In this document: one piece after another, positions 260-52,945 of the stretch
Position numbering within the stretch: the stretch's first letter is position 1
Layout: every line of letters begins with the position of its first letter
Assembly (NCBI RefSeq): GCF_003790525.1
Contig: NZ_CP033635.1
Direction: 5' to 3' (one strand)
Source of the DNA: Escherichia coli
GTDB lineage: Bacteria; Pseudomonadota; Gammaproteobacteria; Enterobacterales; Enterobacteriaceae
DNA length: 64,000 nucleotides
The notes under the pieces: model-generated
What the model was told of the DNA's origin: nothing
What the model saw: only the letters and a program-made list of their open reading frames with translations
The model's database searches: none
Made by a program: the position numbers and the translations under genes

Positions 260-1126
260 ATGTCTGAAATCACAGCCCCCCGTCCGGAAGTGGTCAACGG
301 GCATACGGACGTTATCGGCTCAACCAGCATCCGCCACATTCTGGCTGTACGAAAGAGTGCGCTGCTGCAAATCGACACACTTATCCGGCAACTGGCAGAA
401 ATCTCGGTGCTGACGGAAAGCATCGGAGGTAAAACTGCACTGGACTGGGCCATGAAACAGGATTTTCGCTGCGGTTGCTGGCTGATGGAAAAACCGGAAA
501 CCGCAATGAAAGCCATCACCCGCAACCTTGACCGCGAAATCTGGCGTGATCTGATGCAACGTTCAGGGATGCTGTCATTAATGGATGCACAAGCCCGTGA
601 TACATGGTACCGGTCACTGGAGTACGATAATTTTCCGGAAATCAGCGAAGCAAATATCCTGAGCACGTTTGAACAACTGCACCAGAACAAAGATGAAGTG
701 TTTGAGCGAGGGGTGCTCAACGTTTTCAGAGGACTGAGCTGGAATTACAAAACCAATTCACCCTGCAAATTTGGCAGTAAAATTATCGTCAACAATCTGG
801 TGAGGTGGGACCGGTGGGGGTTTCATCTTATCACCGGACAACAGGCCGATCGACTTGCCGATCTGGAAAGAATGCTGCACCTGTTCAGCGGCAAACCGAT
901 CCCCGACAACCGGGAAAACATCACCATTCATCTGGATGATCACATCCAGTCTGTTCAGGGTAAAGAGGACTATGAAGATGAGATGTTCAGCATCAGATAC
1001 TTTAAGAAGGGCTCCGCGCACATCACGTTCAGGAAACCAGAGCTGGTTGACAGGCTTAATGATATTATTGCCAGACACTACCCGGAAGCCCTGGCAAGCA
1101 CAGTGAACAAAAGCCGCAAGGCATAA
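260..1126 (+). CDS. Hypothetical 288-aa island protein, function unknown (possibly DUF4942-like; unverified)
   Basis: Uninterrupted 867-nt ORF with AAGGAA ribosome-binding site 7 nt upstream of ATG; soluble-looking protein with no transmembrane segment or recognisable catalytic motif; sits between the upstream terminator and the ParDE module. Confidence 0.75.
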   Translation: MSEITAPRPEVVNGHTDVIGSTSIRHILAVRKSALLQIDTLIRQLAEISVLTESIGGKTALDWAMKQDFRCGCWLMEKPETAMKAITRNLDREIWRDLMQRSGMLSLMDAQARDTWYRSLEYDNFPEISEANILSTFEQLHQNKDEVFERGVLNVFRGLSWNYKTNSPCKFGSKIIVNNLVRWDRWGFHLITGQQADRLADLERMLHLFSGKPIPDNRENITIHLDDHIQSVQGKEDYEDEMFSIRYFKKGSAHITFRKPELVDRLNDIIARHYPEALASTVNKSRKA

Positions 1127-1165
1127 AAGAGGTATTTTACAATTCGCGAATATTAACTATTATTA

Positions 1166-1181
1166 ATTGATAGTAATCAAT
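1166..1181. promoter_or_regulatory. Palindromic putative operator in the parDE promoter region
   Basis: ATTGAT-agta-ATCAAT inverted repeat about 17 bp upstream of the parD start, next to a TATTAAT -10-like hexamer (1161..1167). Confidence 0.35.
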
Positions 1182-1197
1182 CGGCGAGAAAATAACC

Positions 1198-1461
1198 ATG
1201 CCTACCAGTGTATCCCTCAGTCCTTACTTTGAAACGTTTATCCGCGAACAAATAGAAAGTGGTCGGTACAACAATACAAGTGAAGTCATTCGTGCCGGAC
1301 TTCGTGCTCTGGAAGAACGGGAACAGCAGATAAAGCTTGAATCACTCCAGAGCGCCGTGGCCGCAGGCATCAACAGCGGTGAAAGTAAAAGTGCTGAAGA
1401 GGTATTCGGGCGACTGACGCACAAATACAAAAAGATGGCAGAAGGTGAACAGCCAATATGA
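1198..1461 (+). CDS. parD: Type II antitoxin, ParD family (ribbon-helix-helix)
   Basis: 87-aa protein MPTSVSLSPYFETFIREQIESGRYNNTSEVIRAGLRALEEREQQI… typical of ParD antitoxins; stop overlaps the next start (ATGA). Confidence 0.85.
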   Translation: MPTSVSLSPYFETFIREQIESGRYNNTSEVIRAGLRALEEREQQIKLESLQSAVAAGINSGESKSAEEVFGRLTHKYKKMAEGEQPI

Positions 1462-1784
1462 AACTGACTGTTTCACCATTAGCAGAACACGATCTTGAAG
1501 CTATAGGTGACTGGATCGCTCAGGATAATCCTGTCCGTGCAATCAGTTTTACCGAAGAGCTTTACCAACAATGTCTGTTGATAGCCGAATCGCCAGTACT
1601 CTACAGAGAAAGACCCGAGTTAGGGGCTGGGATCAGAGGTTGTTCGTATGGTCGTTACCTTCTGCTGTTCAGGGTACTGGATACTGAAGTTCGTATCGAA
1701 CGTATCGTTCATGGTTCCCGGGATATCAACAGGGTACTTGCAGAGCCAGACGACAAACCATCAGATCATTTCTGGCAGCCATAA
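1458..1784 (+). CDS. parE: Type II toxin, ParE/RelE superfamily
   Basis: 108-aa protein; 4-bp overlap with parD; size, basic C-terminal half and gene order fit a ParE toxin. Confidence 0.8.
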   Translation: MKLTVSPLAEHDLEAIGDWIAQDNPVRAISFTEELYQQCLLIAESPVLYRERPELGAGIRGCSYGRYLLLFRVLDTEVRIERIVHGSRDINRVLAEPDDKPSDHFWQP

Positions 1785-2031
1785 ACAAAATCTGTGCGTT
1801 AACGCTCCCTAACACAGGTAGCCAGGTATTTTATAAATCTCTGTATTTTGTTGTCACTTCGATTCCGCGATTCAGCATATCGAACCAGACAAAATGATTA
1901 CAACAAACCACAAGAAAGAGGGATTATAGCGTCAAAAGAATTCGAATTGCACATGGGGGCCTCATTGGTGGCCTCAAAAAGAACAAGGATAAAACAGTCG
2001 ATACAAAACAATTGGTTATATAACCAGTTTC

Positions 2032-2050
2032 ATTCCGAGTCCGGGCACCA
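2032..2050 (+). other. tRNA-Phe 3'-terminal 19-nt remnant (att core direct repeat, attR side); not a functional tRNA
   Basis: ATTCCGAGTCCGGGCACCA matches the acceptor/T-arm 3' end of E. coli tRNA-Phe including CCA; the 57 nt upstream (1975..2031) do not resemble the tRNA body. Confidence 0.8.
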
Positions 2051-2062
2051 AATTCATATAAA

Positions 2063-2088
2063 CGGACCTCCACGGAGGTCCGTTTTTC
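2063..2088 (+). terminator. Native pheU rho-independent terminator retained downstream of the tRNA remnant
   Basis: Stem cggacctc / gaggtccg with 4-nt loop followed by TTTTT, 12 nt after the CCA. Confidence 0.65.
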
Positions 2089-11520: not shown

Positions 11521-11694
11521 CTAAAAGAGAGAAAAAAGTAATGCCACAGGTAAACTCATTGGCCAGGTTATTCCGACCAGGAATGCGCTAAGTAAACGAA
11601 TATGTGTTTTCTCATGTGAGATAAACCAGATAATGACAAAGGATATGTTCACACCAATCACATAAAAAATTAATATTTTAGAGAATAGTGCCAT
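11521..11694 (-). CDS. ghoT: Type V toxin GhoT, small membrane-lytic peptide (57 aa)
   Basis: Below the ORF-track size cut-off; the reverse complement reads MALFSKILIFYVIGVNISFVIIWFISHEKTHIRLLSAFLVGITWPMSLPVALLFSLF*, matching GhoT as I recall it. Confidence 0.85.
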   Translation of the reverse strand: MALFSKILIFYVIGVNISFVIIWFISHEKTHIRLLSAFLVGITWPMSLPVALLFSLF

Positions 11695-11721
11695 TTTTTA
11701 TGTTCTTCTTATCCTTCCTGG

Positions 11722-12018
11722 CTACTTGTAAAACTGACGGAAATAGTCATCAACGGTCATAATGTTGAGGTCAAAATCAATATCCGGTAAGTCTAAGCAT
11801 TTAAGCCTGATTAAATCTTCGATTTCACTTGCGGCTAACGATGTCGTTATTGCGAAGGAATTTTCATTCAATTGTCGTGGTATCCCATATTCATCAGCCA
11901 CGATAGAGGAGAAATTCATATCATACATCAATGATCTTAACCTTAAGAACACTGAGGAATAAGATGATGGATAATCAAAAGAAACAACATAAGTATTGAA
12001 CTTGTTTTTACCTTCCAT
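11722..12018 (-). CDS. ghoS: Type V antitoxin GhoS (sequence-specific endoribonuclease)
   Basis: 98 aa from MEGKNKFNTYVVSFDYPSSY…; immediately upstream of ghoT on the same strand. Confidence 0.85.
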   Translation of the reverse strand: MEGKNKFNTYVVSFDYPSSYSSVFLRLRSLMYDMNFSSIVADEYGIPRQLNENSFAITTSLAASEIEDLIRLKCLDLPDIDFDLNIMTVDDYFRQFYK

Positions 12019-31342: not shown

Positions 31343-32434
31343 ATGCGTTTTCTGCGCCGACCAATATCGCTGCGCCAACGGCTGATATTGACCATCGGGG
31401 CCATTTTGTTGGTGTTTGAGCTGATCAGCGTCTTCTGGCTATGGCATGAAAGTACCGAGCAGATTCAGCTGTTTGAGCAGGCGCTACGCGACAATCGCAA
31501 CAACGATCGCCACATCATGCGTGAGATCCGCGAGGCGGTCGCCAGCCTGATTGTCCCCGGCGTCTTTATGGTCAGCCTGACGCTATTTATCTGCTATCAG
31601 GCGGTACGCCGCATCACCCGCCCGCTGGCGGAGCTGCAAAAAGAGCTGGAAGCGCGCACCGCCGACAACTTAACGCCCATTGCCATTCACAGCGCCACCC
31701 TCGAAATCGAAGCGGTGGTTTCAGCGTTAAACGATCTGGTCAGTCGCCTGACCAGCACGCTGGATAACGAAAGGTTGTTTACCGCTGACGTCGCGCACGA
31801 ACTGCGAACGCCACTGGCGGGGGTGCGTTTGCATCTGGAACTGCTGGCGAAAACGCATCACATTGATGTAGCACCGTTAGTGGCTCGACTTGATCAGATG
31901 ATGGAGAGTGTCTCCCAGCTGCTGCAACTGGCGCGTGCCGGACAGTCATTTTCTTCCGGGAATTATCAACATGTAAAACTGCTGGAAGATGTCATTCTCC
32001 CCTCGTATGACGAACTCAGTACCATGCTCGACCAGCGACAGCAAACCCTGCTATTGCCAGAGAGCGCCGCCGACATCACCGTTCAGGGTGATGCAACCCT
32101 GCTGCGGATGTTATTGCGAAACCTGGTAGAAAACGCCCATCGTTACAGCCCGCAAGGCAGCAACATTATGATTAAGCTGCAAGAAGATGGCGGAGCAGTC
32201 ATGGCCGTTGAAGATGAAGGACCGGGTATTGATGAGAGTAAATGCGGGGAGTTGAGTAAAGCGTTTGTACGTATGGACAGCCGTTATGGCGGGATTGGTC
32301 TGGGGTTAAGTATTGTCAGCCGCATTACACAGTTGCATCACGGGCAGTTTTTCCTGCAAAACCGGCAAGAGACTTCCGGCACGCGGGCCTGGGTACGGCT
32401 GAAGAAAGATCAGTACGTGGTAAACCAGATATAA
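31343..32434 (+). CDS. basS: Sensor histidine kinase BasS (PmrB)
   Basis: 363 aa from MRFLRRPISLRQRL…; transmembrane, HAMP, HisKA and HATPase domains. Confidence 0.93.
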   Translation: MRFLRRPISLRQRLILTIGAILLVFELISVFWLWHESTEQIQLFEQALRDNRNNDRHIMREIREAVASLIVPGVFMVSLTLFICYQAVRRITRPLAELQKELEARTADNLTPIAIHSATLEIEAVVSALNDLVSRLTSTLDNERLFTADVAHELRTPLAGVRLHLELLAKTHHIDVAPLVARLDQMMESVSQLLQLARAGQSFSSGNYQHVKLLEDVILPSYDELSTMLDQRQQTLLLPESAADITVQGDATLLRMLLRNLVENAHRYSPQGSNIMIKLQEDGGAVMAVEDEGPGIDESKCGELSKAFVRMDSRYGGIGLGLSIVSRITQLHHGQFFLQNRQETSGTRAWVRLKKDQYVVNQI

Positions 32435-32499
32435 AGAAAGCTGCTGACCACCAGCACGCTGAACACGGTAGTTAAACTTTCATAAACACGGTTTTTCAT
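32410..32499 (-). CDS. pmrR: 29-aa membrane peptide PmrR, convergent with and overlapping the basS 3' end
   Basis: Below the ORF-track cut-off; the reverse complement reads MKNRVYESLTTVFSVLVVSSFLYIWFTTY*; its last 25 nt overlap the basS coding end. Confidence 0.7.
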   Translation of the reverse strand: MKNRVYESLTTVFSVLVVSSFLYIWFTTY

Positions 32500-32569
32500 T
32501 GCACTCTCCTCCGTTAACCTGGAGGAGAGTATGCGCGTCAGAGATTAAGTGAACCTTAAGAGTTCAATT

Positions 32570-38218: not shown

Positions 38219-38237
38219 TTGTATTGTGATCGGTAAG

Positions 38238-38312
38238 CCGGATAAGGCGCTCGCGCCGCATCCGGCAACGATGCCGACTGCCTGATGCGACGCTGACCGC
38301 GTCTTATCAGGC
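38238..38312. repeat. BIME: two REP elements in inverted orientation
   Basis: gccggataaggcgctcgcgccgcatccggca and gcctgatgcgacgctgaccgcgtcttatcaggc. Confidence 0.8.
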
Positions 38313-38377
38313 TTCCCTCTCATCTGTATAAATTTCGAACTACACTTAACTGGCTTCTCTTAACTGAGGTCACCATC

Positions 38378-52860: not shown

Positions 52861-52945
52861 ATGCCGGATGGTGATGCTAATGAAGTGTCTTATCCGGCCA
52901 ACAAAATAACCTGAACGTAGACCTGATAAACGTAGCCCATCAGGC
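52861..52945. repeat. BIME (two REP-like palindromes) between alsB and alsA
   Basis: atgccggatggtgatg…cttatccggcc and gacctgataaacgtagcccatcaggc. Confidence 0.7.

Follow-up and report, generated by a model that had tools for sequence, protein, structure and literature searches.

A ParD/ParE toxin-antitoxin operon at the distal end of a CP4-like island at pheU in Escherichia coli, with a candidate three-box operator

Two small genes at positions 1198–1784 of the 64,000-nucleotide stretch of Escherichia coli DNA analysed here (the window) probably constitute a standard type II ParD/ParE toxin-antitoxin (TA) operon, the final cassette in a CP4-like integrative island at the tRNA gene pheU, in which ParD would repress its own promoter through three short boxes and ParE would poison DNA gyrase and make the cell dependent on the island. 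The module is already known and annotated, and it is an ordinary ParD/ParE pair; RefSeq names its products 'ParD family antitoxin' and 'RelE/ParE family toxin'. We found no paper on this particular E. coli island pair, and PMC10591226 names parDE only as a plasmid BLAST target.

parD (1198–1461, plus strand; WP_025492088.1) begins with ATG and encodes an 87-aa antitoxin with an N-terminal ribbon-helix-helix (RHH) domain. parE (1458–1784, plus strand; WP_000779483.1), also with an ATG start, encodes a 108-aa ParE-type toxin. The stop of parD and the start of parE have ATGA (1458–1461) in common, which gives a 4-bp overlap, and the overlap was 4 or 1 bp across all orthologues. parD and parE are two overlapping, translationally coupled genes. 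As expected for a type II TA operon, they are small, adjacent, and co-directional, with the antitoxin gene ahead of the toxin gene and one promoter-like site 5′ of the pair. Two minus-strand ORFs within parD (1224–1430 and 1342–1479) were dismissed, since the family matches and the dN/dS signal sit in the plus frame.

ParD scored 96.8 bits against the NCBIfam model TIGR02606 (cutoff, 46.2; residues 3–70) and matched Pfam PF03693 (ParD_antitoxin) with E = 5.1e-17. Among solved structures, phmmer placed ParD2 of Vibrio cholerae, ParD1 of Caulobacter, and ParD1 of Mycobacterium tuberculosis closest to it (E = 5e-11 to 2e-9; residues 3–65). ParE matched PF05016 (ParE_toxin) with E = 9.1e-18 over residues 5–89. 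The sequence-only reading had proposed 87-aa and 108-aa ORFs with a 4-bp overlap that encode ParD and ParE, and both the ORF coordinates and the Pfam/HMM search agreed with it. PF05016 spans the RelE and ParE branches, and the branch was therefore tested separately. All solved-structure matches were ParD or ParE; the eight PDB sequence matches of ParE at E ≤ 1 were all ParE proteins, with Mesorhizobium ParE at the top (2.8e-13), and no RelE chain was among them. The AlphaFold model of ParE (pLDDT 83.7) consists of strand 1, a helix 1–helix 2 hairpin (7–21 and 25–44), three further strands (59–64, 67–73, and 77–85), and a short C-terminal helix. When this model was compared with the PDB using Foldseek, ranks 1–22 were all ParE, PrpT, or PfiT (target-normalised TM-score 0.72–0.90; rmsd 1.3–2.6 Å). 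The antitoxin encoded 5′ of parE is of the ParD type, not the RelB type. Based on the PDB sequence matches, the fold ranking of the model, and the partner antitoxin, we assign the 108-aa protein to the ParE branch.

parDE are the last genes of the island and lie about 250 bp from its distal repeat. 5′ of them, the island encodes, in order, an antirestriction protein, RadC, DUF987, CbeA/CbtA, DUF5983, DUF957, and DUF4942 proteins. Homology to K-12 restarts at 2029–2033, within the last ca. 20 nt of pheU (position 53 of the 76-nt tRNA), and the alignment from 2029 continues at 96% identity through the pheU terminator and an integrase remnant up to cadC. The 3′ fragment of the tRNA-Phe gene pheU at 2029–2052 (plus strand), defined by the K-12 alignment, is the direct repeat delimiting the island on its distal side; ARAGORN found no complete tRNA in the window. 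At the same locus K-12 has cadC–yjdQ–pheU–dicD and no TA module. These results support the earlier proposals that the module sits at an island edge and that K-12 has no TA module at this locus. The first terminator-like site 3′ of parE is the pheU terminator hairpin (2060–2085, plus strand), in which a run of T follows an 11-bp stem; none was detected from 1784 to 2060. Beyond this hairpin lies the frameshifted remnant of an integrase gene (ca. 2248–2407), the counterpart of K-12 yjdQ; at the position of the yjdQ remnant, other strains carry a full-length integrase and a second island, which gives tandem islands. A candidate minus-strand promoter-like site (1857–1828; GTGACA-18-TAAAAT, 10/12) is directed toward the 3′ end of parE. 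The gene just 5′ of parD (260–1126, plus strand) encodes the DUF4942 protein, which has no NCBIfam model; it matches PHROG families, including phrog_6263, annotated as 'DNA methyltransferase' (5.6e-20). All E. coli loci that were sampled, and Yokenella, have DUF4942 5′ of parDE.

The 674-bp parDE module was present in 472 of 5426 complete E. coli genomes, at 505 places, all of them chromosomal and none on plasmids. It was at least 99% identical in 460 of the 472 carrier genomes, and the same junction with cadC occurred in 160 genomes. The order DUF4942–parD–parE at the distal island end was seen in every sampled E. coli locus. When one genome per species was scanned, intact orthologous pairs with 69–89% identical ParE were found in Yokenella, Erwinia, Pantoea, Cedecea, Izhakiella, Photorhabdus, Prodigiosinella, and others; ParD and ParE co-occur and are co-conserved in 14 taxa. 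A conjugative IncF plasmid of Salmonella carries an 82%-identical copy of the lineage. The gene 5′ of parD encodes DUF4942 in E. coli and a DUF4942-like protein in Yokenella, and an xerC-like (tyrosine) recombinase in most of the other taxa, among them Erwinia, Pantoea, and Prodigiosinella, and on the Salmonella plasmid. The recombinase context suggests that, outside E. coli and Yokenella, another kind of element carries the cassette. Because the 5′ neighbours differ in this way across taxa and the plasmid, we conclude that a cassette consisting of the operator-like block described below, parD, and parE moves between mobile elements. In loci L007, L008, L010, and L013, the parDE cassette with the same three boxes lies 3′ of the xerC-like tyrosine recombinase gene, and on the IncF plasmid (L035, 1029–2174) parDE follow genes for the xerC-like recombinase and a toprim-domain protein.

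A bare consensus match (10/12) predicts a sigma-70 promoter of parDE at 1136–1163 (plus strand), with TTTACA (1136–1141), a 16-nt spacer, and TATTAT (1158–1163). It is the only plus-strand promoter-like site in the 71-bp spacer, and the number of such sites in the region was not above that in shuffles. Other Enterobacterales have a different promoter, TTGCCG-16-TATACT, which overlaps box 1 and is not orthologous to that of the window. The −35 (TTGCCG/TTGATA) and −10 (TATACT) common to these bacteria are absent in E. coli, in which similarity to the orthologues starts only at ca. 1149. E. coli appears to use a new promoter 9 bp farther downstream, a case of promoter turnover.

A block at 1150–1176 resembles an operator. 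In 14 Enterobacterales taxa, 19 of its 27 columns are invariant, and the invariant columns coincide exactly with three TAnTAA boxes spaced 10 bp apart: TATTAA (1151–1156), TATTAA (1161–1166), and TAGTAA (1171–1176). Each box holds a small palindrome, TAnTA, centred at 1153, 1163, or 1173. The block is kept although synonymous sites of the adjacent genes are saturated, and 5′ of 1149 the E. coli sequence is unrelated to the others. These boxes are also present in the Salmonella plasmid copy. Of the shuffles, 0.26% gave an equally good triple phased match, in a test that used the window alone and was chosen after the pattern had been seen. The block can alternatively be read as a 25-bp imperfect palindrome centred at 1163, with 11 of 12 pairs in ten orthologues but 9 of 12 in the E. 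coli sequence. Here the three boxes extend over the predicted −10 hexamer and the transcription start, which is predicted near 1170. Judged from this conservation, a control site appears to lie at 1150–1176.

Among characterised systems, ParD2/ParE2 of V. cholerae (PDB 7R5A and 7B22) includes the solved ParD closest in sequence (E = 5.4e-11), and it likewise has the antitoxin gene first; ParE2 matches the fold of our model with a target-normalised TM-score of 0.84. The operator of V. cholerae ParD2 (VcParD2) contains three short, imperfectly palindromic motifs, to which three dimers bind along one face of the helix, in successive major grooves, and V. cholerae ParE2 (VcParE2) tunes this binding according to the ParE2:ParD2 ratio (PMC10776004). 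This three-box layout resembles that of the conserved TAnTA boxes, whereas the boxes read GGTA or GTA[C/T] in V. cholerae and TAnTAA in our lineage. The two systems also differ in that ParE2 is only about 20% identical to our ParE, which does not conserve its gyrase contact Trp25, and in that the Vibrio module resides in the superintegron and the present one in a tRNA island. The 6:2 stoichiometry and the ratio sensing are features of the V. cholerae system. For the toxin, ParE3 of Mesorhizobium opportunistum (PDB 5CEG and 6X0A) was both the best sequence match (E = 2.8e-13; 39% identity) and the best fold match (target-normalised TM-score 0.90; rmsd 1.7 Å). In contrast, ParD3 of this species is only weakly similar to our antitoxin (E = 1e-3), and it comes from a host that differs at the phylum level and from a different context; relatives of the ParD3/ParE3 branch are common on alphaproteobacterial plasmids.

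As for the genetic setting, the closest functional precedent for island stabilisation is ParE_SO/CopA_SO of the Shewanella oneidensis prophage CP4So, described as a ParE-family toxin with an autoregulating antitoxin that maintains the excised element (PMC8706911). As far as that description goes, the two are alike in placing a ParE-family toxin on a CP4-type integrative element, and they differ in the antitoxin, which in Shewanella is CopA_SO and not a ParD-family protein. ParDE of RK2 and of other enterobacterial plasmids (PMC6191456, PMC6614396, and PMC10203498) belong to the same family and share the same addiction logic, and one copy of the present lineage, that of the Salmonella IncF plasmid, is likewise plasmid-borne. 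In complete E. coli genomes, by contrast, all 505 places at which our lineage occurs are chromosomal.

Taken with these precedents, the sequence suggests the following mechanism. ParD dimers would bind the three TAnTA(A) boxes, one helical turn apart, and by covering the −10 hexamer and the start site would repress the promoter of their own operon. By analogy with V. cholerae ParDE2, sub-stoichiometric ParE would strengthen the binding of ParD to DNA and excess ParE would release it. After loss of the island or degradation of ParD, free ParE would poison DNA gyrase, as ParE toxins do (PMC3001019 and PMC11925232), and this would penalise island loss, with an addiction or stabilisation effect. 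We infer the toxicity of ParE, its action on gyrase, the stabilisation of the island, and any part in phage defence by analogy with such systems. Trp25, a gyrase contact, is the single residue with a demonstrated role in VcParE2, and this position is poorly conserved across the family (preprint 10.1101/2025.07.24.666505). In our ParE the aligned residue is Asn24 (via the alignment with CcParE1); because of this and the poor conservation, gyrase remains a presumed target, and an argument on gyrase binding from this position was dropped as uninformative. For some ParE toxins, toxicity is weak or the target unclear. If functional, parDE would contribute to the retention of a pheU island that about 9% of complete E. 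coli genomes carry; the module matters little beyond annotation, being one of many ParDE modules on mobile elements. The concrete, testable operator prediction is a modestly useful by-product, and if confirmed, the three TAnTAA boxes (1151–1176) would bring an enterobacterial lineage within the regulatory model of V. cholerae ParDE2. We tentatively consider it possible, at somewhat less than an even chance, that the three TAnTA boxes, phased at 10 bp and unchanged between E. coli, Photorhabdus, and the IncF plasmid, make ParDE2-like control the general mode for this lineage, and that E. coli captured the cassette without the original −35 and −10 and gained a new promoter within the operator, 9 bp farther downstream.

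Comparison with 11 orthologues gave dN/dS values of 0.03–0.10 for parD and parE wherever dS was unsaturated. Purifying selection is thus strong on both genes. Four decayed loci (Pluralibacter, Pantoea agglomerans, Photorhabdus noenieputensis, and a gammaproteobacterial MAG) retain a full-length parD next to a parE that carries a stop or is interrupted or truncated. At the DNA level, 471 of the 472 E. coli copies were full length, and in the sole truncated one parE was deleted and parD kept. This copy, in E. coli STE15 (L033, 3572–4152), has an intact parD fused directly to a CbtA fragment; the surrounding genes contain many frameshifts, and the quality of the assembly is doubtful. Such earlier decay of the toxin gene would be expected if ParE does harm in the absence of its antitoxin. 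With four to five of five cases, the signal is marginal and barely beyond chance, since parE is also the longer gene.

Two readings at odds with the above concern the identity of the toxin and the site of control. A RelE-like, ribosome-dependent mRNA interferase in place of a gyrase poison might be considered, since PF05016 takes in both branches of the superfamily, the RefSeq name is 'RelE/ParE family', and the parE product gave a match to TIGR02385 (RelE/StbE) of 24.3 bits, below the cutoff of 27.9. A RelE-type assignment raised by this sub-threshold match was ruled out by the PDB sequence matches and the fold ranking: RelE, YoeB, and YafQ chains appeared only after rank 22 (query-normalised TM-score 0.41–0.57) and fitted less well (rmsd 2.8–6.3 Å) than the ParE-type chains, and the model has the long helix 1–helix 2 hairpin typical of ParE. 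Together with the uniformly ParE sequence matches and a partner that is ParD and not RelB, this makes an interferase extremely improbable. The control site had been placed by the sequence-only reading in a palindrome within the promoter, ATTGAT (1166–1171) and ATCAAT (1176–1181) separated by AGTA, and such a single 6-N4-6 element could in principle be the ParD operator. The repeat is indeed present and perfect; it lies directly 3′ of the predicted promoter at the predicted transcription start, overlaps boxes 2 and 3, and has its left arm and spacer within the conserved block. However, among 5000 dinucleotide-preserving shuffles of the 71-bp spacer (28% G+C), 34–37%, about one third, contained at least one inverted repeat of 6 bp that was perfect and had at most 10 nt in its loop. 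Moreover, all six pairs match in E. coli only; in 13 orthologous upstream regions, 1–4 of 6 matched despite nearly identical N-termini of ParD, and the right arm (1179–1181) is unconserved and gapped in the alignment. The RHH homologue VcParD2 also binds phased short boxes, not one long palindrome. The palindrome was rejected as the operator on the shuffle test and the orthologue comparison, and we regard it as an improbable candidate. Three evenly spaced boxes, which the repeat overlaps only in part, are more likely to be the control site, as far as the conserved sequence indicates.

The other two readings accept a ParD/ParE pair and concern what it does. parDE may be an attenuated passenger, in which the genes are intact and autoregulated and the toxin is too weak or too scarce at native expression to kill cells, stabilise the island, or stop phage, so that the pair persists by hitch-hiking or through an anti-addiction function of the antitoxin. 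In Serratia sp. ATCC 39006, the sole canonical parDE was called non-functional by Tn-seq, with insertions in the antitoxin gene tolerated, and its expression by RNA-seq was low (RPKM 18 and 26) (PMC7725324). Strain ATCC 39006 LacA is the same genome record as our locus L008, whose orthologue is 71–78% identical, and the pair scored by Tn-seq, CWC46_13000–13005 of NZ_CP025085.1, is probably this orthologue, as judged by genome position only. The retention of parD alone in several loci and the unconserved Trp25-equivalent residue also fit a passenger. On the other hand, purifying selection on parE is as strong as that on parD across Enterobacterales, a finding not easily reconciled with an inert protein, and nearly all E. 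coli copies are full length, as noted above. Furthermore, Tn5 insertions in parD may be polar on the overlapping parE, and in that case toxicity of ParE would be masked in Tn-seq. An attenuated passenger is rather unlikely. A main role in anti-phage abortive infection has a general precedent in some type II TA systems that defend against phage, and the mobile-island setting beside other accessory genes would suit it. Yet no PADLOC-DB v2 family matched ParD, ParE, or the neighbouring DUF4942 protein at E ≤ 0.01, only one of 50,697 phage records encodes a relative, a distant one, and the papers that we retrieved gave no link between this ParDE lineage and defence. We rejected filing the module as phage defence on the missing PADLOC match and the single distant phage-borne relative, and consider such a main role very unlikely. 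An autoregulated TA operon that stabilises its island is the reading that we prefer.

The window is 99.99% identical to E. coli strain XDL across at least 62.8 kb, with a single IS element as the exception: in XDL, alsB and alsA are separated by an ISKpn26-type IS5 element, which is absent from the window, where the corresponding site is 52877–52885. The target site of this element is marked by a 9-bp overlap of two alignment blocks. No Rfam RNA family was matched within 1–2700, and the sole Rfam matches in the window were the sRNA STnc630 (32403–32568, minus strand; 183 bits) and the nucleoid-associated RNA naRNA4 (38236–38313, plus strand; 87.5 bits). The core-genome part of the window contains a second TA module, the type V pair ghoS/ghoT (ca. 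11521–12018, minus strand), as annotated in XDL.
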